Source of the DNA: Candidatus Aminicenantes bacterium
GTDB taxonomy: Bacteria > Acidobacteriota > UBA4820 > DSQY01
Length of the DNA: 32,469 bases
Direction: 5' to 3'
Assembly (NCBI GenBank): GCA_027365515.1
Contig: DAHXMK010000022.1
Coordinates: 1 to 32,469 of the forward strand
In this document: piece by piece, positions 3,673-29,239 of the stretch
How the letters are laid out: every line of letters starts with the position of its first letter
Numbering within the stretch: position 1 is the first letter of the stretch
The notes under the pieces: model-generated
The model's input: only the letters and a program-made list of their open reading frames with translations
The model's database searches: none
Told to the model about the DNA's origin: nothing
Program-made: the position numbers and the translations under genes

Positions 3673-3703
3673 CATATTTTTCTAAAAGCCGTATGATGTA
3701 ACC

Positions 3704-3814
3704 CGCGCAGGGAGTGCGGCCTGGCGAGCTTCTTATTGAGGGCCGCTGAGAGGCGTCTCGCGGACGCCAACCCCTTGAACCTGAACCGGGTAATGCCGGC
3801 GGAGGGAATGCGTT
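3704..3814 (+). promoter_or_regulatory. TPP (THI-box) riboswitch aptamer upstream of thiC
   Basis: The sequence contains GGGAGTGC...CTGAGAGG...ACCCCTTGAACCTGAACCGGGTAATGCCGGCGGAGGGAA, which matches the conserved THI-element core (CUGAGA, ACCUGAuCnGGnUAAUnCCnGCGnAGGGA). It is closed by a short P1 helix (cgca 3706-3709 with tgcg 3809-3812). It sits about 80 nt upstream of the thiC start. Confidence 0.9.
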
Positions 3815-3816
3815 GA

Positions 3817-5691
<1,875 letters not shown>

Positions 5692-7089: not shown

Positions 7090-7118
7090 TTGTCACAAAG
7101 GCTTTCAGGTGTTACATT
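7090..7118 (+). promoter_or_regulatory. sigma70-like promoter candidate for the ATPase module
   Basis: TTGTCA (7090-7095), a 17-nt spacer, then TACATT (7113-7118). It lies about 20 nt upstream of the Shine-Dalgarno sequence (SD) and ATG at 7140. This rests on hexamer matching alone. Confidence 0.3.
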
Positions 7119-7139: not shown

Positions 7140-8363
7140 ATGGCCGAAAAAGTTGTCTTTGAATCAGCCAGGAAGTCCGATGCGGACATGCGGCAGGCCA
7201 GAAACCCAGTCGAGGACAAGAACGTAATCGAGGAGGTTGACAAGGTTATCTCGGGGGCCGCGGAGTCGGGCGCGACGGAGGTTCACCTAGAGCCGGTGCA
7301 GGACGGATATGTCATCAGGGTAAGAGAGGGGACGGCACTTCGCAAAGTCAACGAGATCCCCGAAAGGTTGAAACTCAACGTAGCCAACAGAATCAAGGTC
7401 CTGGCCGGGCTCGACATCACGAAGAACCGGATTCCCCAAAACGGCTACTTCAAGCTGGTCCACGGGGAAAAGAAGCTCGAACTGAACGTATATACGATAC
7501 CTATGCTTTTCGGCGAGTCCATCGTGATCAAGCTTTCCTACAAGGTTAGCGCCACGATGAGGCTCAACCAGCTTGGAATGCAGCCGGCGGTTCTGGCAGC
7601 CTACCAGAAGGCGCTCGCCAGGGGCTCAGGCCTCTACCTGGTCACCGGGCCGCCCGGATCGGGAAAGCGCACCACGATTTATGCTTCGATCCTGGAACAG
7701 CTCCGTCCAGACCAGCTTGCCTTGGGGTTTGATCCCGTCGTCAAATATGAGATAGAGGGAATGATCCAGGGCAAGCCCGAAGAGAAGAGCGAGTACACCT
7801 TCGCCGAGGCCATCGTGGCTTTAATGAGGCAGGAGCCCGACGTGGCATACATCGGCGACATCAGCAGCGAGCCAGACGCCAGGGCGACGATCCAGGGCGC
7901 CTTCGCGAAGAGGCTGGTTCTGGCGCGAATGACGGCCAACGATTCGGTGAGCACCATACAAAACCTTATAGACATGGGAATCCAACCATTCCTGATCGTT
8001 GCCTCTCTGGCCGCAGTCATCAACCAGCGAATGGTGAGGCGGCTTTGCCCCTCCTGCCGCCAGCCCTATCCGGCAAACGCCGACATCGAAAAGGAGATAG
8101 GACTGAAGCTGCCACAGGGGGCCAACTTCTTCAAACCTCAAGGCTGTCAGGCGTGCCAGGGGACCGGTTACCGCGGAATCATCTGCCTCTACGAGCTATA
8201 TAAGCCCAACGAGGAGTTGGGCAAGATGATCATAGCGAAGGAACCGGTTCAGCAGATAAGGTTGAAAGCGTTCAAGGAACAAACCTTTACGCTGAAGGTT
8301 GATGGAATTATGAAGGCTTTGGGGGGCTACGCCTCTCTCGAAGACGTGCTCAATTGCCTATAA
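7140..8363 (+). CDS. GspE/PilB-family secretion-type ATPase homolog with degenerate catalytic motifs
   Basis: ATG 7140 follows GGAAGAGGGAGAAG. Recognisable family features are ATEVHLEP, RIPQNGY, Walker A GPPGSGKRTT and a C-terminal tetracysteine (CPSCRQ...CQACQGTGYRG). The Asp box, Walker B Glu and His box are substituted (see findings). Confidence 0.85.
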   Translation: MAEKVVFESARKSDADMRQARNPVEDKNVIEEVDKVISGAAESGATEVHLEPVQDGYVIRVREGTALRKVNEIPERLKLNVANRIKVLAGLDITKNRIPQNGYFKLVHGEKKLELNVYTIPMLFGESIVIKLSYKVSATMRLNQLGMQPAVLAAYQKALARGSGLYLVTGPPGSGKRTTIYASILEQLRPDQLALGFDPVVKYEIEGMIQGKPEEKSEYTFAEAIVALMRQEPDVAYIGDISSEPDARATIQGAFAKRLVLARMTANDSVSTIQNLIDMGIQPFLIVASLAAVINQRMVRRLCPSCRQPYPANADIEKEIGLKLPQGANFFKPQGCQACQGTGYRGIICLYELYKPNEELGKMIIAKEPVQQIRLKAFKEQTFTLKVDGIMKALGGYASLEDVLNCL

Positions 8364-8377
8364 GGGAGGTACTCTGA

Positions 8378-8773
8378 ATGCAACAAAAGCTCATCCTGAG
8401 ACGGCGCGACGGGGCCATGGTGAAGTGCTGCACCTATTCGCATTTTTCCGCCGCCTTCAAGAGTATCAAGGTGATCAATACCGACGGGAAGGTCGAATCG
8501 GTGCCGCTATCGGATCTCAAAGCCATCTTCTTCGTGAAAGACTTCGGCGGGAACCCCCATTACCACGCCCACGGCGATTTTTCCGACGAATCCCCGAAGG
8601 CCGGACAGGTAGTGAAAGTGACTTTTCACGACGGCGAGACGATGCGCGGCAGGGTCATCAACATGGCCGAGGGCCACTCTGGTTTCTTCATCTTTCCGGC
8701 GGACCCTTTGGACAATAACGAGAAGGTCTTTATCGTGCGCTCCAATGATATCCGCGTAGAGGTGGAAGGTTGA
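8378..8773 (+). CDS. small hypothetical protein (131 aa) with an apparent internal duplication of a beta-rich unit
   Basis: ATG 8378 follows GGGAGG. The gene starts 14 nt after the GspE-like stop, and its stop overlaps the next gene's TTG start (TTGA). I recognised no family. Confidence 0.7.
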   Translation: MQQKLILRRRDGAMVKCCTYSHFSAAFKSIKVINTDGKVESVPLSDLKAIFFVKDFGGNPHYHAHGDFSDESPKAGQVVKVTFHDGETMRGRVINMAEGHSGFFIFPADPLDNNEKVFIVRSNDIRVEVEG

Positions 8774-11700
8774 CGCTTTCGCTCAGTGAAGCGCTGGATA
8801 AGGCGCGGGAAAGGCTGGCGTTTCTTTCGGTTGCCGCGCCAAGCCGCAAGGAGGGCGGGGATTCCGCCAGCGAGGAAGCGTATTCATTTCTCGCGGAGGC
8901 TTTTTATATGGTCACCGCCGCTGGGATGGCCGGAAGCGCCCAGAAGAACAACTTCATCAAGGAGCTTGCGCAACGTGCGATTGCCGCGATGCAGGACCCA
9001 TCTATGGAAAACCACGCGGGGTTCCAGGGACGACTCTTCGCGCGCTACAGGGATCTTTTCGCCCAAGTATTCCCCGTCCATGGCGCCAGCCGGGACTTGG
9101 TACCGCTTTATCTTAGAAAGTACCAGCAGATACTTGACGACATGGCCCATCTCTCCTCGCTCCAACCCTCCGCCAGAAAAGGTCCTGATGTCGAAAGGGC
9201 TCTCGTTGATGCCTTGACCTTCTTTGTCAACAACTGGACGGGGGCTCTCGCTATCGTCAGGCCTTCATCTCAGACGATGGAAGCTCCGGAGGTGGAGGTG
9301 CTGCCAGGGAACAACGGGCTGGCGGTCTCCAGGCTGAAAAGCCTCTCGCGCCAGATCAGGGATGGGTTGTATCTAGTGCACGAAACGGTTCCACCCCTTC
9401 CGCTTTATCCCTTTTTCTTCACGGACGAGAACAAATCATATATTTTCAGGATGCTGACCTCCGAAGGAGTATTCTACAGGGCCCTTGGCTCCGACGGCTA
9501 CAGCCTGATGTTCGCCACGCAGCTTGTCATGGACTTGGCCGAGTCGCTACTCAGGCTGGGTGCCTACGGGAAGGCTATCAACCTTTACAGAATCGCCGGC
9601 GGCAAAAATAGAGAGGCCGCCCTCTACGCATCGGTCCTAACACACTGCTTAAATGCCCAGGACTATTCGTCCCGCGGAGAGCCGGCGAGAGCGGTAGGGG
9701 AGTGGGAACTCGCCCTGACCGTCAAGCCTGACTACCCGGTCCTTTACCATGAAATGGCTAACGACTGCCTCGCCGCCAATAGGCCGCAGCAAGCTATATC
9801 AGCCTTGAACAGGCTCCTTGAAAGGTTCCCCGTCAGCGATGAAGCTTATGTATCGTTGGGCGACGTTTACGCCGCCAAAGCGGATTGGGGAAGGGCCCAG
9901 CGAGCCTACGAAAAGGCTATGATTCTCAATCCGCACCATCCTGCCGCATCCGAAAAACGCCAGGTGGCGCGAATCAAGCTTGAGGCGAAAGGAGCCGCTG
10001 AAGCAGGAGAGAAGGGGAGCACTCCGCAGGAAGAGTTGGTTTCTTCTCTAACGGACTTGGTAGCTAACAGGCCCAGAGTGGCGCTGGCGGGAAGGGAAGC
10101 TGAAGTAGCGCAGATCATCGAAGTTCTTTCTTGCCGCGATAAAAGAAACGCCTTGTTGGTAGGGGAGGCGGGAGTAGGCAAAACGGCCATTGTTGAAGAA
10201 GTGGCTTTGCGCCTGCATGAAGGCACGGCGCCCGAGCACCTGAAAGGAAAGCGAGTCCAATCCATTAACGTTCCGGCTTTGATCGCGGGAGCCAGATTTC
10301 GTGGCCAGTTCGAGGAACGCGTTCTTGATCTCGTAAGAAAGCTGCGGGAGAAAGGCGAGTTGGCCGTCATCGAAAACATGCACCAGCTCGTTCACACGGG
10401 CGGGTCGCGCGGGGCATCGCTGGATTCGGCGGCGCTCCTGAGCCCCGCGCTCTCGCGGGGCGAAATACAGGTCATAGGAACCACCGACGAGGAGGCGCTC
10501 TCGAACCTGCTCGAGAAAGACCCGTCGCTTCTTAAGAACTTTCACGTCATTCGAATAGAGGAACTGCCTCTAGAGGAAATCAAGAAGGTTTTGTGCCTGC
10601 GGCGCCCTGTTTATGAGGCTTACCATACCGTCTCGATTCCCTCGGGACTATTTGAAAACAGCCTCGACCTGATCCGGGCCTCGATAAATACGAGGTGTCT
10701 CCCAGAGAGCGCGCTCGACTTGATGGATCGCGCCGCTGCGCGCGTCGCGATGCGCGAGCCGTCCGGAGAATGTCTAGAAGTGACGCGAGAGGACATGCTC
10801 CAGACCCTCGCGGAGATGTCCGGTGTCTCATTGGACCGGTTGGCTCTTCTCAGCCACGATCGGCTTGCGAACATTGAACATATGCTCTCGGAAAAAGTAG
10901 TCGGGCAGGAGCGGGCCGTAAGCGCGGTAAGCAGGGTTGTGCGAAGCTGCAAGCTTGGCATGGACCTGGACGCGGACAGGCCAGACGGCGTCTTCCTTTT
11001 CGTGGGTCCCACTGGCGTAGGAAAAACCGAACTGGCAAAGCGCCTTGCCGAAGTTCTTTTCGGCGACGAGGAAAAGCTGATTCGCATTGACATGAGCGAA
11101 TACATGGAACGCATCAGCACTTCGAGGCTGATAGGCACGGCTCCGGGTTACGTCGGATATTACGATCAGAACCAGCTCGCCGACCGCGTCAGGCGCAATC
11201 CTTATTGCGTAGTCCTCTTTGACGAGGTCGAGAAGGCCGACCCCCAGGTCATGAACCTTTTCCTCCAAATATTTGATGCCGGCCGGCTAACCGACGGGAA
11301 AGGCCGAACCGTAAGATTCCACCACTCCACGATTATTATGACCAGCAATATTGGGACGGAGATGTTCTCTCATGGAATGCTCGGATACCGGGAGGAAACT
11401 GGCTCCTCTGGCCTGGACGAAGCTGTCATGAGGCAAGTCCGCTCGAATTTCGCCCCGGAATTTTTGAACCGCGTTGACGAAATAATAACGTTTGACAGCC
11501 TCGGTCCGGAGACAATGGAGTCCATTGTTGACCTCCAGCTGCAGGACCTGAAAGAGCGGCTTGCCCGGCAGGGAAAATCGCTGATACTCTCTTCCGGCGC
11601 CAAAAGACTCTTGGCAAGCCTGGGCTACTCATCGGAGTACGGCGCGCGAAACATAGGAAGAATTCTCAGGCGCCATGTCTCGGAACCGCTGGCACTTCTT

Positions 11701-11853
11701 TCGCTTAAGCCCGAATGGCCGTCTGCGGGAAGAATTCTTGCCGAAGCAAGCGGTGGTGCTATCAAGATTTCTCTTTGGCGCGACGCCGATAAGATCGAAG
11801 CAGAAATGAACCAAGCCGAAGCAGCCGCGACCGAAGAGAAGAGGGGATATTAA
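8770..11853 (+). CDS. TPR-repeat / ClpA-ClpB-type double AAA+ ATPase (D1 degenerate, D2 intact, no M-domain)
   Basis: TTG 8770 lies about 8 nt after GAGGTGG. TPR-like repeats are most evident at about residues 300-400 within an N-terminal region of about 440 aa. The Clp D1 signature is LVGEAGVGKTAIVEEVA...RFRGQFEERV. D2 shows FVGPTGVGKTELAK, VVLFDEVEKA, IIMTSN, PEFLNRVDE and GARNIGR. Confidence 0.85.
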   Translation: MTLSLSEALDKARERLAFLSVAAPSRKEGGDSASEEAYSFLAEAFYMVTAAGMAGSAQKNNFIKELAQRAIAAMQDPSMENHAGFQGRLFARYRDLFAQVFPVHGASRDLVPLYLRKYQQILDDMAHLSSLQPSARKGPDVERALVDALTFFVNNWTGALAIVRPSSQTMEAPEVEVLPGNNGLAVSRLKSLSRQIRDGLYLVHETVPPLPLYPFFFTDENKSYIFRMLTSEGVFYRALGSDGYSLMFATQLVMDLAESLLRLGAYGKAINLYRIAGGKNREAALYASVLTHCLNAQDYSSRGEPARAVGEWELALTVKPDYPVLYHEMANDCLAANRPQQAISALNRLLERFPVSDEAYVSLGDVYAAKADWGRAQRAYEKAMILNPHHPAASEKRQVARIKLEAKGAAEAGEKGSTPQEELVSSLTDLVANRPRVALAGREAEVAQIIEVLSCRDKRNALLVGEAGVGKTAIVEEVALRLHEGTAPEHLKGKRVQSINVPALIAGARFRGQFEERVLDLVRKLREKGELAVIENMHQLVHTGGSRGASLDSAALLSPALSRGEIQVIGTTDEEALSNLLEKDPSLLKNFHVIRIEELPLEEIKKVLCLRRPVYEAYHTVSIPSGLFENSLDLIRASINTRCLPESALDLMDRAAARVAMREPSGECLEVTREDMLQTLAEMSGVSLDRLALLSHDRLANIEHMLSEKVVGQERAVSAVSRVVRSCKLGMDLDADRPDGVFLFVGPTGVGKTELAKRLAEVLFGDEEKLIRIDMSEYMERISTSRLIGTAPGYVGYYDQNQLADRVRRNPYCVVLFDEVEKADPQVMNLFLQIFDAGRLTDGKGRTVRFHHSTIIMTSNIGTEMFSHGMLGYREETGSSGLDEAVMRQVRSNFAPEFLNRVDEIITFDSLGPETMESIVDLQLQDLKERLARQGKSLILSSGAKRLLASLGYSSEYGARNIGRILRRHVSEPLALLSLKPEWPSAGRILAEASGGAIKISLWRDADKIEAEMNQAEAAATEEKRGY

Positions 11854-12892: not shown

Positions 12893-13295
12893 ATATAAAT
12901 GGCCCAAGGTACGTACGTCTGATAAGATATCTTATGTCTATATATTGGCGCTGACAGGGCTGTGTCCTTCAGCATTAACTCTCCCGGTCTCTCGCTTCGT
13001 AATCTCGGCAATTCGTGCAGACCACTTCGAACATTAACCATCACGGCGAATGCCCTGATGCATTACCCTGCAACATAAGCCGGTTGTCAGACGTTTTATC
13101 ATATTTCAGATCATATTGATAGCCGTTTAATATAACCATTTCAACTAATTATTGGATATTTATTGATTATACTGGTAAATAATCGGCAATATCTCATGAA
13201 AGAAAAGATATTATTGTTAGCTCAGTAACGAGTAATATCGTGTGTATTTGCTTAGTTATCAATGTATAATCAATTCTTACTAAGTAATATACTGG

Positions 13296-13913
13296 CTAAA
13301 GACGACCAATTTTAGGCAGCAATTCAACTAACGAGGCAATACCTTTTTGAATAACGGGCAAGGATGATGAAAGGAGGGACCCTGGAGTCGCGGCCACTCC
13401 CCTACTCTCATTGACGATAACTTCATCGGGGGCTACTTCCATGCAGCTCTTGCCAGATGGCCAGGGCCCAAAAAGCGTTGTCACTATGAATTCTGCGAGG
13501 CTTATCGCTCCAATTGATCCTCCAGATGAGGCGGTTTCAAGAAGAAATTGGGCAACCTCAGGGTGAATTGTACGAGGATTATTCATGTCACCAAAATTGG
13601 TGATCCAATTCTTGACGGCGCCTTGGCCGCCGGGCAAGACAACGCCATTAAGGAGTTTGGGCGATATCTCTTTTAACAAGAACAGCTTGCCTTTCACTAA
13701 GCGAGACGCTTCTGTATATTGCGACCGAGACTGCTCTGAAATATCAAGCATAGTTGAATGGTCGCAAACTTGGAATTGCGGCTCCTCGATTGATAGATAC
13801 ACGACGTCATAGCCCGCTCTCTGTAATTCCAGAGTGGCAAGGACGGCCTCATGCACGTCACTACCGTCAAGAGCCCCGCAGCCATTTAGAAGAAGCCCGA
13901 ATCGAAGCTTCAC
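13296..13913 (-). CDS. ElbB-like DJ-1/PfpI (class I glutamine amidotransferase-like) family protein
   Basis: The N terminus GLLLNGCGALDGSDVHEAVL and the VLPGGQGAVKN motif match my memory of E. coli ElbB (ILSGCGVYDGSEIHEAVL, VPGGFGAAKN). The start overlaps the nrnA stop (ATGA). G+C is lower than in neighbouring genes. Confidence 0.7.
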   Translation of the reverse strand: MKLRFGLLLNGCGALDGSDVHEAVLATLELQRAGYDVVYLSIEEPQFQVCDHSTMLDISEQSRSQYTEASRLVKGKLFLLKEISPKLLNGVVLPGGQGAVKNWITNFGDMNNPRTIHPEVAQFLLETASSGGSIGAISLAEFIVTTLFGPWPSGKSCMEVAPDEVIVNESRGVAATPGSLLSSSLPVIQKGIASLVELLPKIGRL

Positions 13914-14908
13914 CGCTCGGCCGTCTCGCTTTCTAACGCCGACACAGCCTCTCGTATCAATAGCTCTTCGGCCTCATCTATTGGGATATCCAATCGGACG
14001 CCGGCGGCATTTTGGTGACCGCCCCCACCCCAGGGCGAAACGAAGCGATCAATAGGGAAATTCCCTCTTGAGCGGCATGAGACTTTTGTGTGGTTATTCC
14101 CTAACTCCTTAAAAAAGAAGCCAGCTACGACACCATCAACCTGTACTGTAAAATTAACAAGATCGTCCGCGTCTTCCATCCTGGCCCCGACCTGCCGGAT
14201 CATCTCATGGCGCATCTCTATCCAGGCGACCTTTCCACCAGGCGAACGCCGGAGAGTAGAGAGAATCGCGCCGGTAAGCTTCAGCCGCGTGGGGCTTTGG
14301 CGTTCGAAAATTTCGCTGTATACCCTCTGCGGTTCGACGCCCGCTGAGAGCAACTCCGCCGCAAGCCGGTGAGTTTTCGGGGTAGTGCTTGGATACCTGA
14401 AGCTGCCCGTGTCTGTAAGAATAGCGGCATATAAAGGCTCAGCGATTTCGACGCTGAGCGGAACATCGAGATGATTGATTACCTCCCTAACAATCGCCCC
14501 CGTTGCGCAAGCATCCTCGTCTATGAGGTAAGTTACTCCTTTTTCCTGGTCCAGCCTGTGGTGATCTATGACGATGATCCCTTCACTCTGGCGCGAAAGA
14601 GGCAGAACCGCCCCGAGCCTTTCAAAGGCCCCCATATCAACCACGACGGTCCACGCTGATCTGAAGAGCTCCTCTGGCGCTTGAATATCCCTGGGAGTGA
14701 CTATTTCGGCCGGTTCTTTGAGCAAAAACCTAAGGTTTTCCGGGACTTGGGTGGGATTGATCAGTGCCACTTCCTTGCCGAGGCCTCTAAGCGCCCTCCC
14801 CAAAGCGAGCTGGCTTCCAATGCCGTCTCCGTCACTGGACATATGTGTCGTCACGACGAATTTCTCACAAGAAGCTAATTTCGCAACCACATCTAGAAGC
14901 TGGTTCAT
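13910..14908 (-). CDS. nrnA: DHH-family phosphoesterase, NrnA-like oligoribonuclease / pAp phosphatase
   Basis: Diagnostic motifs are HMSSDGDGIGS, VIDHHR (DHH) and the DHHA1 motif GGGHQNAAG. The length is 332 aa. Confidence 0.85.
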   Translation of the reverse strand: MNQLLDVVAKLASCEKFVVTTHMSSDGDGIGSQLALGRALRGLGKEVALINPTQVPENLRFLLKEPAEIVTPRDIQAPEELFRSAWTVVVDMGAFERLGAVLPLSRQSEGIIVIDHHRLDQEKGVTYLIDEDACATGAIVREVINHLDVPLSVEIAEPLYAAILTDTGSFRYPSTTPKTHRLAAELLSAGVEPQRVYSEIFERQSPTRLKLTGAILSTLRRSPGGKVAWIEMRHEMIRQVGARMEDADDLVNFTVQVDGVVAGFFFKELGNNHTKVSCRSRGNFPIDRFVSPWGGGGHQNAAGVRLDIPIDEAEELLIREAVSALESETAER

Positions 14909-14994: not shown

Positions 14995-15558
14995 CTAGAG
15001 AGCCCCAAGCTTCGCTAGAAGCGCGTTGAGTTCCGATTCCAATGTATCAATTGAGCCATTATTCTCAAGAATATGATCGCTCAGCTTGAGAGTGGCCTCC
15101 AGCTGCTGGCTTGTTGGATCGGATCCGTTCTCTTCGGCCTCCTTCTGAAGAAACGCGTCGAGCCCGGATGTGGCATCTCCAGTACGTCCTCTATCAACCG
15201 CCCGCTGATAACGGACCTCTGGCGATGCGGTAACCCCTAAGAGCATGAACCCTGCCAGCCCCACGCGCAATGCCTGCACCTCTGCAGGGTTGCGAATCGA
15301 ATCCACCACGTCACGTGACCCCAGTCTCGGCAATATCCTTAAAGCCAAAGCGGATGGGCCGCCTTCCCGCCTGATCCTGTTTCCAGTGGCGATCAAGTGG
15401 TCACGGCCAGTGGTTAGGCCTTCAGAAAGAGCCTCCTCCCTTACGATGTCGGAGAGGCTGTGGTATTTGAATCCGCGGCTCTTCAGCATCGCGGCGACCG
15501 TTCCCTTTCCTGAGGCGTTCGGGCCGGTCAGGCCAATTATGAGAGGGGCGCCCGTCAC
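14995..15558 (-). CDS. P-loop nucleotide kinase-like protein (dephospho-CoA kinase / UPF0200-like)
   Basis: GTG 15558 overlaps the upstream stop (GTGA), with GAAGG about 8 nt upstream. The N-terminal Walker A is IIGLTGPNASGKGT. At 187 aa it is small-kinase sized. Substrate is unknown. Confidence 0.7.
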   Translation of the reverse strand: MTGAPLIIGLTGPNASGKGTVAAMLKSRGFKYHSLSDIVREEALSEGLTTGRDHLIATGNRIRREGGPSALALRILPRLGSRDVVDSIRNPAEVQALRVGLAGFMLLGVTASPEVRYQRAVDRGRTGDATSGLDAFLQKEAEENGSDPTSQQLEATLKLSDHILENNGSIDTLESELNALLAKLGAL

Positions 15559-16835
15559 TGGATTGCCTTCTTTTTGGCCGTGGCAAGCTGAACCAGCAGA
15601 GGATTTTCGGGCTCTCTTGCCGCCGCAATATATTCTGGCAGAGCCATTGGAGAATACCCCATCATCTGGTAGCTCCTACCCAAGAAATACGAGGCCTTGG
15701 ATTGGAGTGATGTAGTGTAGGGCAAATTTGTCAGCAGGTCGGAAAGTTCCCTGGAAGAGTCCTCGTACTTTCCCAGCCTGTAGTTGCAGTAGCCAAGCCA
15801 ATAGGTGGCGTCTCCAGTATAGAGGTCAAGCGGCTGTTCCTTGACGAAGTTTCTCAAAAGAGGGGCTGCTTCCTCCTCCCGCTGCTCCCTCAGGAGAGAA
15901 ATCATGCCCAGCAGGTTGTCTCGATTGGCGGTTTTGTCCTTCAGGTAAGCGGAAGCCCATTCACGGTAGCTTAAGTTCAAAACAGCCTCATCTTCACCGC
16001 ACGCCTTAAGCGCTGACTGCCAGTCGGCACCCTTTTGAAGGGAGCCCAGTATCAGTTGAATTGCCTCGTCTCCACGCCGCGCCTCGATGCTTCTGAAAGC
16101 CCAGTAGCCGTTGAGCCACTGGCGCTCGCGGCCCGTCCCAAGGCCCGAGATTGCCTGAATCGGGGGGACGCTCAGCGAAAGAAGCGACCGGGTCTCATAG
16201 ACATGGCCAAAATCAGTGAGGTTCAGAACCAGGCCGGCTTGAAACCATTCAGGCGCTGCTGAATACCCTGGACAATTTTCATCCAACAATATCTGGCAAA
16301 GCGCCGCTGCAAAAAGATCTCTGGCGGCCCACCATTTCAGCATTATCGGTTCTACGGCAAATTGCGCTTTCCACCACCCTGAACCGCCTTTTGCCACCGA
16401 GAATGGCTGCTTGAATGAACAGGCCTGATAATCGGATGGATTAAATTGAGCTAGGTTCTGCGCCGAAGGGTAAAGGCCGGAACCGTCCTTCAAATCCTTT
16501 ATGGCTTCAACCAACGCTTCATCAAGATCGCCAAGCGCTCTGGCTGCATCGCCGTCACCGGCAAACCTTCCCGAGTAGGCCTCCACCTTCAATCCTGCCC
16601 ATGACATCGGGCGCTCAGGCTGGGCGGCAATGGGCTTTGCAGTTGGCTCGGACTTCTCCTGTTTTGCGTTTGTCTCAGGCCGCGCCACCCTTTCAATTCT
16701 TGGCGGCGCGGGCTGGTCCGGAATAAATAGATAAGCCAACTCTTTTCTGTGGCGCCAACCCACAAGCCCAAGGCAGGCGATGAGAACGAAGAGGCCCAGC
16801 AATAGCGCGAAGAGGGTTCTCCACAACCGGTTCAA
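15555..16835 (-). CDS. membrane-anchored protein with C-terminal TPR repeats
   Basis: I favour TTG 16835, which has GGAGG 4 nt upstream and overlaps the BatE-like stop (TTGA). This gives an N-terminal TM helix WRTLFALLLGLFVLIACLGLVGW. The C terminus is TPR-like (YWLGYCNYRLGKYEDS...). The 562-aa track ORF extends antisense-like through the upstream gene and I do not believe it. Confidence 0.7.
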   Translation of the reverse strand: MNRLWRTLFALLLGLFVLIACLGLVGWRHRKELAYLFIPDQPAPPRIERVARPETNAKQEKSEPTAKPIAAQPERPMSWAGLKVEAYSGRFAGDGDAARALGDLDEALVEAIKDLKDGSGLYPSAQNLAQFNPSDYQACSFKQPFSVAKGGSGWWKAQFAVEPIMLKWWAARDLFAAALCQILLDENCPGYSAAPEWFQAGLVLNLTDFGHVYETRSLLSLSVPPIQAISGLGTGRERQWLNGYWAFRSIEARRGDEAIQLILGSLQKGADWQSALKACGEDEAVLNLSYREWASAYLKDKTANRDNLLGMISLLREQREEEAAPLLRNFVKEQPLDLYTGDATYWLGYCNYRLGKYEDSSRELSDLLTNLPYTTSLQSKASYFLGRSYQMMGYSPMALPEYIAAAREPENPLLVQLATAKKKAIQ

Positions 16836-17572
16836 GGAGCCTCCAAGTTGGACGATTCGGTCCAACCGCTGCCTTCTCCCCACATCAAAAGGCTCCACTC
16901 TCCAGCGGAGGCGACGCGCACAACTTCGGAGCCGGGAGGAAGCGTTGCAAGTTCCGCCCCTTCGTTGGCCGCCTTCTCCGTCACCTTCGCAGGCGACACT
17001 ATCACAACTGGCTGATGCATCGGTGCCACTCTGACCGCGTAGTACAAACAGCCTCCCGATACGGCCGCGGCAATGAACAGGCCGGTCATTACCGCGGCGA
17101 GGCTTCTTCTTGCCTTTCCGGGGCCGAGGAACAGGGCGATCCATAGAAGCACGTTGCCAGCAAAAGCCAGAAACAGCGTGATTACCGTGAACACATTTGT
17201 CCCGACCGACGTTATCGCCGCCTCCCAGGGGGGGGGCTGCCATGCCACCGCTTTCGCCGGAAGCAGCCTGCGCGCGGTGGCCAAGTTGGTCATCGCGGCT
17301 TTCATCTTTGAATCGAAGAGGAGCGCCCTGCGGTAGGCCACGATCGCCCGCGCCACGTCCCCGCCCTTGAGAAAGCTGTTTCCGAGGTCGAATTGCACTT
17401 CAGCGCCGTCATGGCCCGATGAAGCCATAAGCGCATAAAGCTTAGCCGCCTCCGCGTAGCGACCCTGTTCGTAAGCCTGGCTCGCCTGCGAGGCCATTGC
17501 CGAGGGGACCTGGGCTAGCAGCGCCGACGCCGAGGCCCACAAAAGAAAGGCGAAAGCAGTGATTTTAGCCAC
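16832..17572 (-). CDS. BatE-like protein (signal peptide, TPR, TM segments, C-terminal SH3b-like domain)
   Basis: GTG 17572 lies 7 nt after GGAGG and overlaps the batD-like stop by 8 nt. The TPR segment is AYEQGRYAEAAKLY...GNSFLKGGDVARAIVAYRRAL. The C-terminal GEWSLLMWGEGSGWTESSNL resembles SH3b. The position after BatD fits the Bat operon order. Confidence 0.7.
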   Translation of the reverse strand: MAKITAFAFLLWASASALLAQVPSAMASQASQAYEQGRYAEAAKLYALMASSGHDGAEVQFDLGNSFLKGGDVARAIVAYRRALLFDSKMKAAMTNLATARRLLPAKAVAWQPPPWEAAITSVGTNVFTVITLFLAFAGNVLLWIALFLGPGKARRSLAAVMTGLFIAAAVSGGCLYYAVRVAPMHQPVVIVSPAKVTEKAANEGAELATLPPGSEVVRVASAGEWSLLMWGEGSGWTESSNLEAP

Positions 17573-19313
17573 GCCACGCCTCCTCTACAAGGCGCCGAAC
17601 CGTTTCGTAACGCGCCGCCAGATCTTTTTTCGTTACTGTTTCTCCGGCGAATTCCGCCGATTCGAGCTGGTCCAACAGGGAAATGATGTCGGAACAACGC
17701 TCTTTGCTCACACCGGCTTCAGCTAATGCTTCCGCTAGCGAGCCTCTAGTTAGTCCCGCCGCGGACCTGCCGGCCATGAGGTTCAGGCCGGCGTAGAGCG
17801 CCTGAATTGCCTCGGCGTGGAAAAGTTGCGCGTGCCTGACATCGAGGTTTTTTCGCGACAGCCTCAAGTGGTGGCGCGCCCTCCTGTACTGCGCCCTAGC
17901 GGCTTTCTTTTCCGGGGATGCGAGCTTGGTCCTGTATAGCCAGAGCCACGAAGCAAGGAAAATGCTGGCGATGAATGGCAGCGCTAGAAGCGGAAAGAAG
18001 GCGTCACTCGAGAAGAGGTGTTTCTTTGGTTTGGAAGGACGCGGGTCCTGGATAAGAGGCGCCAAGGCGAGATTCTGTCCGCCGGAGATACCGGTGCCAC
18101 TTACCATGAGTTTCAGTCCAGAGACCTCCGACGTCTGATACTTGCCAAGCGCCGGGTCGAAGTAGACCAGCGCCGCCGCCGGCAAAACGGCATCTCCTTG
18201 GAGCTTAGGCAGAAGAGACATGTTCAAAGTGCGATTGACCATGAAAACGCCGTTCATGAAGCTGCTTTCATCGTGAGAAGTCGCCGGATAGGAAGTGAAA
18301 AATGGAGTATCTTGCCAGCGGACCGGATTGTCCGGCAGAAAACCGGAACCTGTCACGCTGTAGGCAAGCGTGAAGGGTTGGCCAACCGAAGCCTGCGGCG
18401 GGATTCCGTTTTGCATCTTGAGCGTGAATGAGCCAACAGCGCCGCTGAATCCTGGAGGTGCAGGAGGCAGCGCTATCGTCTGCAAATCGGCTTTCCCGCC
18501 GGAAATTCTGGTCGTAACCACCCTGCCGCCCGCTTCGCGAGACTCGACCCTCAAAAGAGCCTCGAATGGTGAAATAGTCAAAGTACCCTGCTCAATGGGA
18601 AAAAGCGTATAACGGAGCACGGTCACGTCAAGGAATGTCAAGCCGTCCCGGGAAAAGGGCCGCGACCGCGGCGGCGTCTGCTCCGGCGCCTCCACCTTTC
18701 TGAAACCCTGGAAATCCGGCCGCTTGGTGATCTCGAAATTCCTGACCGAAGAATGGGTGACCAGATGAAGGGTATAGGTAACCGGTTGCCCGACGTAGGC
18801 TCTCGGCGATGAAAGCTCGCCTGTCAGGTACAGTTCACCGGCCGGAAGCGGAGCGGCCGGCGCTGGAACCACCGGAAGCGCCTTCTCTTGGCTTGTCGCA
18901 GCGCCCTGCTCGACATCCACGGCGAAACCCGGGACGCTCCTTGTCTGGCCTCCGATTCGAAGGCTCAAGTCCGGAACCACTATGTGGCCCGATCGCGTCG
19001 GCGAAAAAAGGTAGTGGTAGGCGAATATCATTCCACCGTTCTGCGCCGTCTCGACGGTCTGGTACTGTCCCTGCAATTTAAGCCCGTCTATCGGCGGCAG
19101 CGGAGGCTGGGGGATGGCGGAGCCCGGGCCCTTCAGGCGCAACGTGAAGACGAGGCCCTCCCCTATGCGCATGGAGGTTTTGTCGGCCGAAGCACTGATT
19201 TCGAGGTTTTGTGCCACCAGCGCCACGGAGAGCAAAGCCATCAGGGCGGACGCAAGGACAAGCTTCACCATCGTCGAGCTTGCCTCGCGCCTACTTAATG
19301 CCTTTGCGCCCAT
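17565..19313 (-). CDS. batD: BatD-like (oxygen-tolerance family) membrane protein
   Basis: It has a signal peptide, repeated beta-rich segments typical of BatD (ISASADKTSMRIGEGLVFTLRL, YVGQPVTYTLHL), a C-terminal TM helix and a charged helical tail. An alternative start is ATG 19271 (MVKLVL...). Confidence 0.7.
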   Translation of the reverse strand: MGAKALSRREASSTMVKLVLASALMALLSVALVAQNLEISASADKTSMRIGEGLVFTLRLKGPGSAIPQPPLPPIDGLKLQGQYQTVETAQNGGMIFAYHYLFSPTRSGHIVVPDLSLRIGGQTRSVPGFAVDVEQGAATSQEKALPVVPAPAAPLPAGELYLTGELSSPRAYVGQPVTYTLHLVTHSSVRNFEITKRPDFQGFRKVEAPEQTPPRSRPFSRDGLTFLDVTVLRYTLFPIEQGTLTISPFEALLRVESREAGGRVVTTRISGGKADLQTIALPPAPPGFSGAVGSFTLKMQNGIPPQASVGQPFTLAYSVTGSGFLPDNPVRWQDTPFFTSYPATSHDESSFMNGVFMVNRTLNMSLLPKLQGDAVLPAAALVYFDPALGKYQTSEVSGLKLMVSGTGISGGQNLALAPLIQDPRPSKPKKHLFSSDAFFPLLALPFIASIFLASWLWLYRTKLASPEKKAARAQYRRARHHLRLSRKNLDVRHAQLFHAEAIQALYAGLNLMAGRSAAGLTRGSLAEALAEAGVSKERCSDIISLLDQLESAEFAGETVTKKDLAARYETVRRLVEEAWRG

Positions 19314-19502
19314 AGTCGCCTTTCGCGTTGACGCGGGCCCGTCTTACGCCCGGGCCGCTTCGATTTTAGTATAGCACTATTGCCATTCTCGCGACGTGAA
19401 TCTTTCTTGATTCGTGGGCGTATAATAGAAACGTCGTTTGTCGGGGGATTTCTGCGTCTCCCTAAATTTAAGGTAGCCGGAGAGAGAAGAAAGGAGAATT
19501 TC

Positions 19503-21020
19503 ATGCGGAACAGAGGCCGAATCTTGTTTCTGGCCGTCATCGCGCTGGTGCTTTGCGCGTTGCCGGCCCTGGCGGGCGACCCCGGGTTCAAGCAGCTTGA
19601 AGGCGAGGTCTTCCAGACTACTCTGCCAAACGGGTTGACCGTCATCATCCTGCCGCGCCACGAGGCGCCCGTAATCTCGTTCGTCACCTACGCCGACGTC
19701 GGCGGGGTGAACGAACAGCAGAACGCCACGGGGCTGGCCCACATCTTCGAGCACATGGCCTTCAAGGGAACCACGACGCTCGGAACCAAGGATTACCCGA
19801 AAGAAAAGGCGGCCATGGACAAGGAGGACGCGGCCTTCACGGCGTTGCGCGCCGAAAGGCTTCGCCGTCCCAAGCCGGACCCCGAAAAGCTGAAAGCGTT
19901 GGAAGCCGAATTCAAGAAGACTCAGGAAGAGGCCCAGAAGTACTCGGACACCGGCGCCTTCGACAAGGTTCTTGAGCGCGAAGGGGCGGAAGGGCTCAAC
20001 GCTTTCACCGCCTTCGACCAGACCGTTTACCACTACTCCCTTCCCTCCAACAAGCTCGAACTTTGGGCCGCGCTGGAGGCCGACAGGTTCACGAACCCTG
20101 TCCTTCGCGAGTTCTACAAGGAGAAGGACGTGATTATGGAAGAAAAGAGGATGGGCGAGAGCCAGGCCATCGGCCGCCTCTTCGCCGATTTCTTCCCCGT
20201 TGCATTCAAGGCCTCGATGTACCGCTCTTGGGTCATCGGCCATATGAGCGACCTCCAGGCCATCACAAGGCAGCAGGCGATGGATTGGTTCAACAAGTAT
20301 TACCGCGCGAAGAATTTGACCGTGGCCATCGTCGGCGACGTTGACCCCAAAACGGCGATGCCGGTTCTCGCGAAGTATCTCGGCGACATACCTGCTGGCA
20401 CGAAGCCGGAGGGGCCGGTGACGGTGGAGCCTCCTCAGCGCGAGGAAAAGCGCATCATCATGGATGACCCCTCCCAGCCTTTCCTAATCATCGGCTACCA
20501 CCGGCCGGACGTGAACGACCCCGACGACCCGGTTTACGACGTCATCAACGATATCCTGGCCGGCGGCCGCTCGTCCCGCTTGTACACGTCCCTGGTCAAA
20601 GAGAAGAAGCTGGCGCTCGCGGTTGAAAGCGCCTCCTCGATCGAAGGGCAGAAGTACCCAGGCATTTTCGGCATCTTCTGCGTGGCTAACAAAGGAAAGA
20701 GCAACGCCGAATGCGAACAGGCCATCTACACTGAACTCGACCGCCTTAAGAACGAGCCGGTGTCAAAGGACGAACTTGAAGGGGTGAAGGCTCGCGCGAA
20801 GATGCACTTCATCGAATCAATAGACAGCAACATGGGGCTTGCCATGCAGCTCGCTTTCTACCAGAACCTACAGGGCGACTGGCGCTCGATGTTCAAGGCG
20901 CTCGACCGCATTGACGCCGTGACCCCTGAAGACATCATGCGTGTTGCAAAGCAGACCTTCGTCAAGAACAACCGGACGGTGGGCATGATCGAAACGACGC
21001 CAGCCAAGGCGGAGAAGTGA
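19503..21020 (+). CDS. secreted M16-family (pitrilysin/insulinase) zinc peptidase, catalytic subunit type
   Basis: ATG 19503 follows GAAAGGAGAA. It has a signal peptide (LCALPALAG) and an intact inverted zinc motif HxxEH (HIFEHMAFKGT). Confidence 0.9.
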   Translation: MRNRGRILFLAVIALVLCALPALAGDPGFKQLEGEVFQTTLPNGLTVIILPRHEAPVISFVTYADVGGVNEQQNATGLAHIFEHMAFKGTTTLGTKDYPKEKAAMDKEDAAFTALRAERLRRPKPDPEKLKALEAEFKKTQEEAQKYSDTGAFDKVLEREGAEGLNAFTAFDQTVYHYSLPSNKLELWAALEADRFTNPVLREFYKEKDVIMEEKRMGESQAIGRLFADFFPVAFKASMYRSWVIGHMSDLQAITRQQAMDWFNKYYRAKNLTVAIVGDVDPKTAMPVLAKYLGDIPAGTKPEGPVTVEPPQREEKRIIMDDPSQPFLIIGYHRPDVNDPDDPVYDVINDILAGGRSSRLYTSLVKEKKLALAVESASSIEGQKYPGIFGIFCVANKGKSNAECEQAIYTELDRLKNEPVSKDELEGVKARAKMHFIESIDSNMGLAMQLAFYQNLQGDWRSMFKALDRIDAVTPEDIMRVAKQTFVKNNRTVGMIETTPAKAEK

Positions 21021-21024
21021 GGAG

Positions 21025-23223
21025 ATGGCCATGAGAACGAAAACGATAACTCGAACATTCGCCGCGGCCGCCCTGCTCCTCGGCCTTTCGGTGGTGCCAT
21101 TCACCGCGCAGGTCAAGCCGGCGCCATTGGGGAAGCAGGTGGTTGACCACCTCAAGTATCCCAAGCTCAACCCGATTCAAATGCCAACAGTCACGAGAGA
21201 GACGCTCCCGAACGGAGTCAAGCTGATTCTGATCGAAGACCATGAGTTCCCCGTCGTCTCGCTGCGCGCCCTCGTCAGAGGCGGCAAGCTCGCCCAGCCT
21301 CAGGACAAGCCGGCCCTGGCCCCTCTGTTCGGCGAGGTTCAGCGCACCGGCGGCGTGAAGAGCATGTCGGGCGACGAGATGGACACCTACCTCGAAAGGA
21401 TCGGCGCCTCCATCGAAACGAACGTCAGGGACGATTACGGCACGGTGACGGCAAAAACGCTGAGCGAGCAGTTGGACAAGGTCCTTCCCCTCTTCGCGGA
21501 GGAGCTCGAATCTCCCGCATTCGCCCAGGAGAAGCTCGACCTTGCCAAGACGCACCTGAACTCGGAAATATCGAGGCGAAACGACCAGGTAATGGGAATA
21601 GCGAGGCGCGAGATACTGAAGCTCTTTTACGGCCCCAAATCCCCATACGCCCGCCAGATCGAATACGACGACGTGGCCGCGGTCACGCGTGAGGACCTTC
21701 TGAATTACCAAAAGCTCGTTTACCGCCCCGACTCGACCATCATCGCCGTCTGGGGCGATTTCAAGACCCCCGACATGAAGGACCGGCTTGCCATCGCCCT
21801 TGGCGGCTGGGAAGCGAAGGGAGCAACGCCAGTTTACAAGGCCCCGGAGCTCCCCGCTCCCGCTGCGTCGGTGAATTACGCCGAAAAGAAGGACGTCGAG
21901 CAGACAACGGTTTTGATGGGGCATCTCGGCCTCAGGCTGGACGACCCCGATTATCCGGCGGTTGATATGCTCTCGGAAATTCTCGGCGGCGGCATGGCTT
22001 CGAGAATGTTCATGAACATCAGGACGCTGAAGGGGCTTGCTTACGGAGCCGGCGGCTTCATGGTCCCCGCCTACGACCACGCTGGCGCATTTTACTTCTA
22101 CACGGCCACCAAGCCTTCGACCACCGCCGAGGCGATGGAGGCCATGCTTGAAGAGATCAAGAAAATCCGCGAGGCGCCGGTCACCGACGAGGAGTTGACG
22201 AGGGCGAAAGAGGGCTACCTGAATACTTATGCCTTCGAATTCGATTCCACCGAGAAGATCGCCACGCGGCTTGCGACTTACGAACTCTACGGCTACCCCG
22301 CCGACTTCAACGTCAAGCTGAGAAACGCCATCGAAAAAGTAACGAAGGAAGACGTGCTGCGCGTCGCCAAGAAGGACCTCCACCCGGAGCTTCTGACCAT
22401 CCTGGCGATTGGCAATCAATCGCAATTTGACAAGCCGCTCTCCACCTTCGGCAAAGTCAACGACATTGACCTGACGATTCCCGAGCCGAAGCCGAAAGAG
22501 GTCATTCCAGAGGCGACACCCGAAAGCTTGAAGGCGGGCACGGCGCTTCTGGTAAAGGCGGCGAACCTCATGGGCGGCAAGGCTCTCGCCGGCCTCAAGG
22601 AGATGACGCTCGAAGGGGCGAGCACGATCGTGACCCCGATGGGCGAAATGGAGCTCAAGGGAGAAGGGACATTCGTCTTCCCGGACAGGCTGCATAACCA
22701 GGTTCAGACCCCGATGGGCGCTATGATCACCGTGCTCGACAAGGACAAAGGCTTCATGGTCATGGGGCCGCGAGTCAAGGACCTTCCTCCCTCAGCCGTA
22801 ACAGAAATGGCGGGAGAGCTTTACACCGAATCGGGCTGCGCCCTTCTTCTCCAGCGCGCGCTGCAAGGCAAGCTCGAAGGCCAGTTGATCGGGAAGGCGC
22901 AATTTGAAGGCCAGGAAACGGACGACCTGCTCGTGAAGATCGGCGATGCCTCGGTAAGAGTTTATCTGGACAAGGATGGCCGCGTGGCCGGGGTCAAGAA
23001 GCACGCGATAACTCAGCAGGGCCCGGCGGAAGTCATTCAGATTTTCAGCGACTACAGGCCGGTTGACGGCCTCAGCCTGCCGTTCCAGACCGTTGAGAAG
23101 GTCAACGGCGAGGTAAAGGCGACGAACAGGTATTCGGCAATAAAAGTCAATGCCGGCTTCAACGAGGAGCTTTTCAAGAAACCGGCACCGGCCGCCGCTG
23201 CCTCGGCCCCGGCCGAGAAGTAA
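21025..23223 (+). CDS. M16-family peptidase homolog lacking HxxEH, with a C-terminal extension of about 250 aa
   Basis: It starts 4 nt after the upstream stop, with GAGGAG overlapping that stop. It has a signal peptide. The M16 fold is recognisable, but the zinc-motif position reads LAPLFGEVQRTGG. The extra C-terminal beta-rich domain runs from about residue 480 to 732. Confidence 0.85.
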   Translation: MAMRTKTITRTFAAAALLLGLSVVPFTAQVKPAPLGKQVVDHLKYPKLNPIQMPTVTRETLPNGVKLILIEDHEFPVVSLRALVRGGKLAQPQDKPALAPLFGEVQRTGGVKSMSGDEMDTYLERIGASIETNVRDDYGTVTAKTLSEQLDKVLPLFAEELESPAFAQEKLDLAKTHLNSEISRRNDQVMGIARREILKLFYGPKSPYARQIEYDDVAAVTREDLLNYQKLVYRPDSTIIAVWGDFKTPDMKDRLAIALGGWEAKGATPVYKAPELPAPAASVNYAEKKDVEQTTVLMGHLGLRLDDPDYPAVDMLSEILGGGMASRMFMNIRTLKGLAYGAGGFMVPAYDHAGAFYFYTATKPSTTAEAMEAMLEEIKKIREAPVTDEELTRAKEGYLNTYAFEFDSTEKIATRLATYELYGYPADFNVKLRNAIEKVTKEDVLRVAKKDLHPELLTILAIGNQSQFDKPLSTFGKVNDIDLTIPEPKPKEVIPEATPESLKAGTALLVKAANLMGGKALAGLKEMTLEGASTIVTPMGEMELKGEGTFVFPDRLHNQVQTPMGAMITVLDKDKGFMVMGPRVKDLPPSAVTEMAGELYTESGCALLLQRALQGKLEGQLIGKAQFEGQETDDLLVKIGDASVRVYLDKDGRVAGVKKHAITQQGPAEVIQIFSDYRPVDGLSLPFQTVEKVNGEVKATNRYSAIKVNAGFNEELFKKPAPAAAASAPAEK

Positions 23224-28493: not shown

Positions 28494-29239
28494 TTCCGGG
28501 GACACAATACTCATTTCTCCTCTGTTCTCTTCTTTCGCCCTGGTTTCTGGGGCTTGAGGGTTCTTCCAAGGGCTACCTCCAGTTTCTCGACGAACCCGGC
28601 GGAACCCAGCGGCCGTCCTGTCCTCTCACCGCGCCGGATGGCTTCGGCTTCTGCTTCCGCCATACCGCCTTTCAGCAATGACGCCCACTCCCCACAGTCC
28701 CTCAGAGGCTTCGCAGAACGTATGAGCGCGCCATACTCTCCGCTCAGATGAGCACGGGCGCTGCTCCACGGCCACTGTTCCGGACGCTTGCATAGCTTCG
28801 CCCGCACAGCGTTCAACTCGATATACCGCGCGCAGGCAATCGCATATCTTCGCTCCATCGGAAACGAGGCGAACCTCCCCTGCCACAGGTACCCCCGCCA
28901 CCGTTCCCGGAAATTGATTAGCCTCGTATAGCGGCGATGAACTTCTCCGACTGCCCTGGCAAGACCGTCAGCACTGTGCGGCACCAGCATCAGATGGACA
29001 TGGTTCGGCATGAGGCAGTAGGCCCAGACATCCACCTTGTGCCTTTTGCACCATGCGCCAAGCAGATCCAGATATGCGCTATAGTCGTCGTCACAGAAGA
29101 ACACCGGCTGACGCCTGTTCCCGCGCTGCGTCACGTGGTGAGGGTACCCGGAAGCAACCACTCGCGCCAGTCTCGCCATGAAGCGATCCTATCCCTACCG
29201 CCACTGCATTGTCAACATATCAGTATTGTGTCCCCGGAA
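28494..29239 (-). mobile_element. RAYT / IS200-like unit 1: Y1 transposase gene bracketed by 18-bp perfect inverted repeats
   Basis: ttccggggacacaatact (28494-28511) is the exact reverse complement of agtattgtgtccccggaa (29222-29239). I verified this base by base. Confidence 0.75.
28511..29179 (-). CDS. REP-associated tyrosine transposase (RAYT) / IS200-family Y1 transposase
   Basis: It has the HUH motif (PNHVHLML), the catalytic Tyr context (ARYIELNAVRAKL) and the family N terminus YHVTQRGNRRQPVF. Confidence 0.85.
   Translation of the reverse strand: MARLARVVASGYPHHVTQRGNRRQPVFFCDDDYSAYLDLLGAWCKRHKVDVWAYCLMPNHVHLMLVPHSADGLARAVGEVHRRYTRLINFRERWRGYLWQGRFASFPMERRYAIACARYIELNAVRAKLCKRPEQWPWSSARAHLSGEYGALIRSAKPLRDCGEWASLLKGGMAEAEAEAIRRGERTGRPLGSAGFVEKLEVALGRTLKPQKPGRKKRTEEK

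Follow-up and report, generated by a model that had tools for sequence, protein, structure and literature searches.

INTRODUCTION

Adaptors of the Hsp100/Clp unfoldases bind at accessory N-domains and are able to activate their partners (PMC5515868). Here we describe a stretch of 32,469 nucleotides from a Candidatus Aminicenantes bacterium (contig DAHXMK010000022.1 of assembly GCA_027365515.1; "the window" below, at its full length) that holds three adjacent genes, here called A, B and C, for a PilB/GspE-family protein with degenerate catalytic motifs, a small protein of the family DUF6982 and a Clp-like double AAA+ protein with a novel N-domain. Its composition matches no described system that we found, and the trio probably represents a regulated protein-unfolding module of a new kind. 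A preliminary description made from the sequence alone had been unable to map it onto any described system, and we likewise found no paper or curated family for the A-B-C unit; literature on Hsp100 proteins with tetratricopeptide repeat (TPR) N-domains and on degenerate PilB amounted to general reviews, and none was found on a GspE-ClpC-TPR operon.

On the Clp side, the trio recalls ClpC with its co-encoded adaptors, as in the Bacillus subtilis operon, whose order is ctsR-mcsA-mcsB-clpC, or MecA-ClpC: here too a double AAA+ protein carries a ClpP-type loop, and the clp gene directly follows those of its (in the trio, putative) partners. Unlike ClpC, C has neither Clp_N nor the M-domain (the two docking sites of MecA and McsB), its D1 ring is degenerate, and its putative partners, a PilB-fold pseudo-ATPase and a DUF6982 protein, are unrelated to MecA, McsA/B and ClpS. 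C shares with Escherichia coli ClpA the build of a class-I Clp without an M-domain, with D2 as the (in C, predicted) main motor and the (in C, putative) ClpP-docking tripeptide at the same position, but has a 430-aa orphan domain in place of the Clp_N/ClpS-binding domain and has lost the Walker B and arginine finger of D1. Substituted N-domains that retarget the motor are also known in ClpV, ClpE, ClpG/ClpK and human Skd3/CLPB, the last with a helical-repeat (ankyrin) domain; what distinguishes C from these is the joining of a TPR-containing orphan domain to a degenerate D1 and a ClpP-type loop, in a gene linked to a secretion-ATPase homolog.

On the secretion side, A resembles PilB/GspE of type IV pili (T4P) and type II secretion systems (T2SS) in its full-length T2SSE match, its N2D and CTD and its tetracysteine zinc module, but it lacks N1/GSPII, its catalytic motifs are replaced, and no platform, pilin or secretin genes adjoin it. 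In Hfq-EbsA-PilB of cyanobacteria and PilZ-FimX-PilB of Pseudomonas/Xanthomonas, as in A-B, a small all-beta protein is encoded with or binds a PilB-family hexamer; B, however, has no sequence relation to Hfq or PilZ and only weak fold matches, and its PilB-type partner is predicted to be non-catalytic and has no pilus context. A non-hydrolysing partner with a RecA/ATPase fold in a secretion-ATPase-type system is also found in the archaellum, where the KaiC-like FlaH is a structural or regulatory partner of FlaI, an active PilB-family member. In the trio, by contrast, it is the PilB-family member itself that is degenerate, and the active partner would be the Clp.

RESULTS

A conserved three-gene operon

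In the list of open reading frames (ORFs), genes A, B and C are all encoded on the + strand, at positions 7140-8363, 8378-8773 and 8770-11853. Between A and B lie 14 nt (8364-8377) that include GGGAGG, a predicted ribosome-binding site, while C begins at 8770 with a TTG that runs into the stop of B (TGA), a 4-nt overlap (gTTGA) that is kept in locus L001 and in L002-L004; the tight, co-directional packing given in the preliminary description is thus exactly as claimed. A longer ORF for gene A, from 7008, is also open. Because all A orthologs begin at the position aligned to the ATG at 7140, and gene calls elsewhere give 407-408 aa, we place the start at 7140. The trio had also been placed behind a sigma70-like promoter candidate, and a site of that kind is present at 7090-7118 (+; TTGTCA-17-TACATT, the -10 preceded by TG), 22 nt upstream of the gene A ATG. 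Such sites are no more frequent than shuffled sequence predicts (4 observed vs 2.2 +/- 1.3), so that it stays a candidate only. No riboswitch or other known RNA element was found upstream of gene A with Rfam.

To follow the arrangement through other genomes we scanned from B, using the DUF6982 alignment against one genome per GTDB species and keeping the best 80 of 199 confirmed loci; with five from earlier look-ups, 85 loci (numbered with the prefix L) entered the comparison of B identity. The result was sharply divided. In all 15 loci where B is at least 58% identical to that of the window, 11 of them in GTDB species representatives, A lies directly upstream and C directly downstream, whereas A and C are absent from all 70 loci with a B at 43% identity or less. 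Six further metagenome loci (L087, L090, L091, L167, L168 and L169) have A-B-C in the same order, which thus holds in every locus with a close B homolog and in at least 17 lineages. A metagenome scan seeded with A broke off as cleanly, from orthologs at 60-67% identity to canonical PilB/GspE at 36% or less; of its five A-ortholog loci three have the trio, one stops at the contig edge and one (L089) carries A alone. The flanking genes differ from locus to locus: YmdB and RNase Y (L001, L167), TruD (L002), PolA (L169), an ABC exporter (L168) and, in the window, an acyl-CoA dehydrogenase gene. The preliminary description would have failed had the three genes not been co-localised in other genomes; they are, amid unrelated flanks. 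Together with dN/dS values of 0.025-0.12 across genes A, B and C, the junctions and the synteny show A-B-C, at the level of sequence, to be one conserved, translationally coupled operon.

The trio is rare, amounting to about 25-35 clusters at 90% identity among 5.8 billion proteins. Its named hosts are all metagenome-assembled genomes (MAGs) of Acidobacteriota, namely Thermoanaerobaculia (one of them assigned to Thermoanaerobaculum aquaticum) and one labelled Aminicenantes; that is, the trio is restricted to one part of that phylum (Thermoanaerobaculia and Aminicenantes-type MAGs). Since it is confined to one lineage and the identities of A, B and C to the window's proteins co-vary across loci, its inheritance looks vertical rather than mobile.

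Nor does the trio sit inside a known secretion cluster, which would have counted against the preliminary description. By tblastn, no PilC homolog or prepilin-like ORF was found within 8 kb in the 15 trio loci of the first scans and there was no ClpP match, and no T2SS, T4P or type VI secretion system (T6SS) Pfam families were found among the annotated neighbours of trio loci. The same had been said of the window itself, and a domain search of its other large ORFs, a few of which lack a Pfam match, indeed found no pilin, PilC/GspF, secretin, ClpP or T6SS domains.

In one sub-lineage of trio loci the operon continues directly 3' of C with a gene of 356-359 aa for an ArnD-like protein (NodB-fold deformylase/deacetylase), a few bases from C or overlapping it by 8 nt (L002:11473-12546; L015:11470-12549; L016:5131-6201; L168:13488-14561; L169:13463-14533; also L003, L004 and L012). 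The match to ArnD is full-length (NCBIfam E 1e-35 to 4e-40; PDB 8t0j, E 7e-23), at 127-138 bits against an equivalog cut-off of 382. Neither the window, searched by tblastn, nor the sub-lineage to which it belongs (L001, L167) has the gene.

A PilB/GspE-family protein with replaced catalytic residues

Gene A encodes 407 aa of the PilB/GspE family (T2SSE), comprising N2D and CTD only. It matches T2SSE (PF00437) over profile positions 4-369 of 370 with 252.5 bits (cut-off 24.9), and reaches about half of the NCBIfam equivalog cut-offs (GspE, 322 of 630 bits; PilB, 301 of 675); identity to canonical PilB/GspE is 33-36%. The protein aligns to EpsE residues 115-495 and PilF residues 12-385 and has no T2SSE_N match; an alignment that begins only at EpsE residue 115 means that A is missing the N1/GSPII domain found in assembly ATPases.

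We compared its motifs by alignment to EpsE and PilF in 13 sequences, those of the window and of 12 orthologs at 59-95% identity (all window coordinates of the motifs are on the + strand). At the arginine-finger site (7428-7448), RIPQNGY replaces R[LV]PQDGR, and PQ[NST]G[YF] is found in 13 of 13. The Walker A variant (7647-7676) reads GPPGSGKRTT against the canonical GPTGSGKS: the lysine is kept, the Mg-binding Ser/Thr is Arg in all 13, and residues G170-R177 are invariant in the A-family alignment. In the degenerate Asp box (7725-7751), GFDPVVKYE replaces [TV]EDP[IV]E[FY], with EDPIE changed to [FY]DPxxK across orthologs. The Walker B region (7833-7868) is EPDVAYIGDISS where the canonical form is DPDVxMVGEIRD, so that GEIRD has become GDISS; at the acidic position the window and eight orthologs have Asp and the other 4 of the 12 have Glu, and the Arg of GEIRD is lost in all 13 sequences. 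The His box (7902-7940), FAKRLVLARMTAN, canonically LTGHLVxSTLHTN, is without histidines: TGH...STLHTN has become AKR...ARMTAN in the window, and both His are replaced across orthologs (AKR...[MV]TAN). Kept, on the other hand, is the tetracysteine zinc module of the CTD (8046-8156; CxxC...CxxC), with C303, C306, C336 and C339 invariant. Also invariant is a C-terminal tail, LEDVLNxL-COOH.

The catalytic glutamate, in a Walker B of the form hhhhGE, is a defining feature of the PilB/GspE secretion ATPases (PMC11656802). The suspicion that A is catalytically impaired was well founded, the Walker A Ser/Thr, Asp box, His box and arginine finger being replaced relative to EpsE and PilF in the orthologs as well as in the window. 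Most of the replacements are identical in 13 of 13 sequences, the Walker B acidic residue being the one that varies (Asp/Glu), and dN/dS against close relatives is 0.025-0.10 (dS saturated), which indicates strong purifying selection. The low dN/dS and the conservation of the replacement residues themselves mark A as a conserved protein, not a decaying gene. Judging from these motifs, A has very probably given up Mg-ATP hydrolysis, and we read it as a non-catalytic scaffold or ligand sensor, probably hexameric, rather than a motor.

A Clp subfamily with an orphan N-domain

Gene C starts at a TTG and encodes a class-I Hsp100/Clp-like double AAA+ protein of 1027 aa. Its Pfam architecture is TPR, AAA_lid_9, AAA_2 and ClpB_D2-small, with no Clp_N (PF02861) match. 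Matches in the PDB are to ClpC, ClpB and ClpA (about 1e-107 to 1e-132), the best being B. subtilis ClpC, and the protein scores far below all curated Clp equivalog cut-offs, including those of ClpA (510 bits vs 993), ClpV (437 vs 885), ClpG and ClpK. In a collection of 5.8 billion proteins, 25 full-length orthologs score 1079 bits or more and ordinary ClpC/ClpB 463 bits or less; the latter are covered to 61% at most and all carry Clp_N, whereas none of the 25 orthologs does. By this break in score and architecture, C is shown to define a discrete Hsp100/Clp subfamily.

In place of Clp_N stands a domain of about aa 1-430 (8770-10059, +). The preliminary description had proposed that the usual N-domain is replaced by about 440 aa of helical/TPR repeats; the replacement stands, given the lack of Clp_N, but the domain is not helical throughout, since the AlphaFold 2 (AF2) model (pLDDT 86.3, pTM 0.85) places a beta subdomain (about 159-247) between a helical bundle (about 1-155) and four to five TPR-like helical hairpins (about 250-414). 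Foldseek recognised the TPR part alone. The first 259 residues (aa 2-260) matched nothing in Pfam at E <= 10, and an exhaustive HMMER search with them in 1.84 billion representative proteins returned six matches, four strong (orthologs or fragments) and two weak and partial; a word-indexed search with the N-domain gave two matches, swamped by TPR proteins.

The two rings differ in their state. D1 (10162-10551, +) preserves Walker A (GEAGVGKT) and the pore loop (AGARFRG) with its aromatic residue, but Walker B reads VIENMH vs FIDELH (DE to EN) and the arginine-finger site LLKNFH vs ERRFQ (RR to KN), an EN/KN pattern that is the same in 10 of 10 sequences compared. D2 (11005-11652, +) is canonical, with Walker A GPTGVGKT, pore loop GYVGY, Walker B LFDEVEKA, sensor-1 MTSN and sensor-2 GAR. 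We infer from these motifs that D2 of C is the sole complete ATP-hydrolysing site in the trio; D1 probably binds nucleotide for assembly, without driving unfolding.

At the position of the ClpP-docking VGF of B. subtilis ClpC lies a GMLGYR loop (11374-11391, +; HMMER against 3j3t pairs 'kyvgfn' with 'gmlgyr'). The motif is [LVM]G[YF] in 10 of 10 sequences and LGY in the window. An M-domain is lacking: ClpC residues 406-461, a 55-residue segment, have no counterpart, the gap falling at C residues 662/663 or thereabouts in all orthologs.

DUF6982 within and outside the trio

Gene B encodes 131 aa that match DUF6982 (PF22478) over profile positions 2-127 of 134 (97 bits, cut-off 24.5; E 1e-27). 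Two signature motifs stand out, DLKAIFFVKDFxGN at 8513-8554 (+; KAIFFVKDFxGN in the family alignment) and GFFxFPADPxxNNxxVF at 8681-8737 (+; GFFxFPxDPxxNN), and B proteins of the trio type have 14 clade-specific conserved positions. The protein is an internal duplication of a five-stranded beta-barrel, much as the "small duplicated beta-protein" of the preliminary description: its halves are homologous at the profile level (hhalign probability 93.5%, E 2e-7), and the AF2 model (pLDDT 86.8) has 5+5 strands. Foldseek with this fold gave nothing in the PDB at E <= 1e-3, the best, weak matches there being tandem Tudor/Agenet domains (E 8e-3, TM about 0.3), and two unnamed matches just below E 1e-3 in BFVD (TM 0.34); the family profile had no match among PDB sequences at E <= 10. 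A PilZ-like identity was rejected by eye, as the RxxxR / DxSxxG pattern is not kept in the family alignment, and homology of B to the beta subdomain or helical bundle of C was rejected at an hhalign probability of 0.1%. A literature search found no paper on DUF6982. Profile matches to a well-described pathway would likewise have refuted the preliminary description, but those obtained lead to none: B is DUF6982 only, and the first 259 aa of C have no Pfam family.

Outside the trio, all-against-all ORF clustering of the 70 stand-alone DUF6982 loci found no consistent partner. The commonest neighbour is a sigma54-type activator (12 of 70 loci, at variable positions), and 65 of the 70 are free of PilB/PilC homologs and prepilin-like ORFs within 8 kb. 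One genomic link alone was found to recur, to a canonical T4P cluster on two Atribacteria MAG contigs (L084:1924-9836, L076:405-4332), in which a tandem pair of DUF6982 genes lies in the order intact PilB, GAF/HD-GYP, PilC, two sigma factors, two DUF6982, prepilin; these loci are an independent, though sparse, association of DUF6982 with PilB machinery. As a single case, a deltaproteobacterial MAG (L036:7315-8402) has a stand-alone DUF6982 gene that is immediately preceded, in the same orientation, by an isolated prepilin-like gene (122 aa, KGFTLIEL). Stand-alone DUF6982 genes occur in Thermoanaerobaculia too (L017, L030, L059), and for this reason the B of the trio looks like a recruited paralog.

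Other features of the window

A thiamine pyrophosphate riboswitch (Rfam RF00059, 64.7 bits) lies at 3700-3825 (+), directly upstream of thiC (3895-5691). Downstream of the trio, GC content falls to 0.45 within 13001-14000 (about 0.58 elsewhere) over a 205-aa ORF with no Pfam match (13296-13913, -) that adjoins a DHH/DHHA1 phosphoesterase gene; the same pair comes after the trio in L001. In a Bat-like cluster at 15555-19313 (-), one gene encodes a BatD-domain protein (17565-19313) and another a TPR protein (16832-17572), and a 562-aa ORF (15555-17243) matches no Pfam family. The cluster is followed by two adjacent M16 (insulinase-type) peptidase genes on the + strand (19380-21020 and 21025-23223); the long antisense ORFs that overlap them (19380-23223) are probably spurious. 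Near the end of the window a tmRNA gene (150.8 bits; 30682-31026, -) adjoins two IS200/Y1-transposase-like genes (28511-29179 and 29638-30504, both -), and this region may be a mobile-element insertion zone.

DISCUSSION

Proposed function and alternatives

We tentatively favour, as plausible but well short of assured, the reading that the trio is a regulated cytoplasmic unfolding and degradation module, in which A and B act as an adaptor or scaffold that gates C, and not a secretion or pilus motor. A, with the double beta-barrel B, would be the dedicated partner of C; the two would dock on its lineage-specific N-domain (helical bundle, beta subdomain and TPR) and thereby gate the assembly or the substrate choice of C, as McsA/McsB or MecA do on ClpC. 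C would then thread the selected protein through its pore, driven by D2, and most likely hand it to a ClpP encoded elsewhere. Dedicated partnership is the most economical assumption because the N-domain of an Hsp100 is its docking site and that of C is unique to the clade carrying A and B. The hand-off to ClpP is suggested by the hydrophobic-Gly-aromatic loop at the ClpP-docking position and the lack of an M-domain. Contact between A and B gains support from Hfq-EbsA-PilB (PMC8092324) and PilZ-FimX-PilB (PMC11656802), where small beta-barrels bind PilB-family hexamers. As a conjecture, the invariant C-terminal tail of A might be the ligand of the C TPR.

Several observations weigh against this reading. 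Walker B of A has Glu in 4 of the 12 orthologs, which would allow some residual nucleotide turnover by A. The putative ClpP-docking loop ends, in the window, in Tyr rather than the usual Phe or Leu, and tblastn with an approximate E. coli ClpP query detected no clpP linked to the trio in the window and about 165 loci. At L089:5995-7221 an A ortholog (60% identity, the same GKR/no-His motifs) has no B or C within 2.2 kb. (Downstream of it lie convergent unrelated genes, and upstream a selD-like gene and a 198-aa ORF without an assignment.) Finally, most DUF6982 genes (70 loci, many phyla) stand alone without a conserved neighbour, so the ancestral role of B was not Clp-specific.

The data fit A and B as clients of C as well as they fit adaptors, and this is the next reading to be weighed. 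C may remodel or recycle an assembly of A or of A and B, such as a pseudo-PilB ring or polymer, with ClpP optional. ClpV, which recycles the contracted T6SS sheath and whose specialised N-domain recognises a co-encoded structural protein, is a precedent, and NSF similarly recycles SNARE complexes. The synteny and coupling that speak for an adaptor speak equally for a client, and a protein conserved yet non-catalytic is what one expects of a structural element. We nonetheless consider it unlikely: there is no sign that A or B polymerises, the ClpP-type loop of C fits degradation better than recycling, and partners upstream with clp downstream are also typical of adaptor operons, mcsA-mcsB-clpC being one. 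Distinctly unlikely, too, is a detached T4P/T2SS accessory, in which A would be an inactive competitor or regulator of PilB on a PilC/PilM-type platform, B a cofactor that binds PilB, and C responsible for the turnover of pilus components. Control of PilB by small cofactors is established (PMC11656802), the N2D-CTD fold and zinc module are retained in A, and both the paired DUF6982 genes of the two Atribacteria loci, between pilC, two sigma-factor genes and a prepilin gene, and the prepilin-like gene directly upstream of DUF6982 in the deltaproteobacterial locus would suit it. Yet A lacks N1/GSPII, which assembly ATPases carry; no pilus genes, PilC and prepilin-like ORFs included, lie within 8-10 kb in any of about 20 trio loci; and the solo DUF6982 loci are likewise, in 65 of 70 cases, away from such genes.

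Two further readings remain. That the operon runs on into the ArnD-like gene after C in L002-L004/L012, L015, L016, L168 and L169 might point to a control module for envelope glycans or lipid-linked sugars, the trio regulating or quality-controlling the ArnD-like enzyme or its pathway; with that gene absent from the window and its sub-lineage, and scoring far below the equivalog cut-off where present, and with no other envelope-glycan gene conserved near the trio, we regard this as improbable. Matches of C to the PADLOC models DolB and PDC-M37B (E 1e-30 to 1e-35) would suit a system for defence against phage or for stress, centred on a ClpB-like ATPase in the manner of Dodola DolB or the candidate PDC-M37. 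What they span, however, is just the generic AAA_2 part of D2 (aa 682-867), neither A nor B has a meaningful defence-family match in PADLOC, the trio is flanked by housekeeping genes and not by defence islands, and its inheritance looks vertical, so that we give this reading very little credence.

Beside the favoured adaptor-gated module we entertain a bolder version, possible though we would not expect it: a two-ring cytoplasmic machine of a kind not yet described, in which a pseudo-hexamer of A, bridged by B, would cap or stack on C through its N-domain and select or gate substrates. If true, this would be the first case in which a PilB/GspE-family protein has been turned, without catalysis, into the specificity ring of an AAA+ protease, and DUF6982 would gain a first function, that of a module binding PilB-family proteins.

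Significance of the trio

The locus defines a discrete and strongly conserved Hsp100/Clp subfamily whose N-domain is an orphan with a confidently predicted fold and whose D1 ring appears naturally inactivated. This subfamily is nearly always linked to a PilB/GspE pseudo-ATPase, from a family otherwise known only as active motors of envelope machines. The idea of a joint function is open to experiment, because one trio locus is assigned to Thermoanaerobaculum aquaticum, a species with a cultured type strain. If A, B and C do work together, they would enlarge the repertoire of Clp adaptors, reveal a new evolutionary fate of secretion ATPases, as catalytically dead scaffolds, and provide the first functional handle on DUF6982, a family found in many anaerobic phyla (Nitrospirota, Desulfobacterota, Acidobacteriota, Atribacteria).

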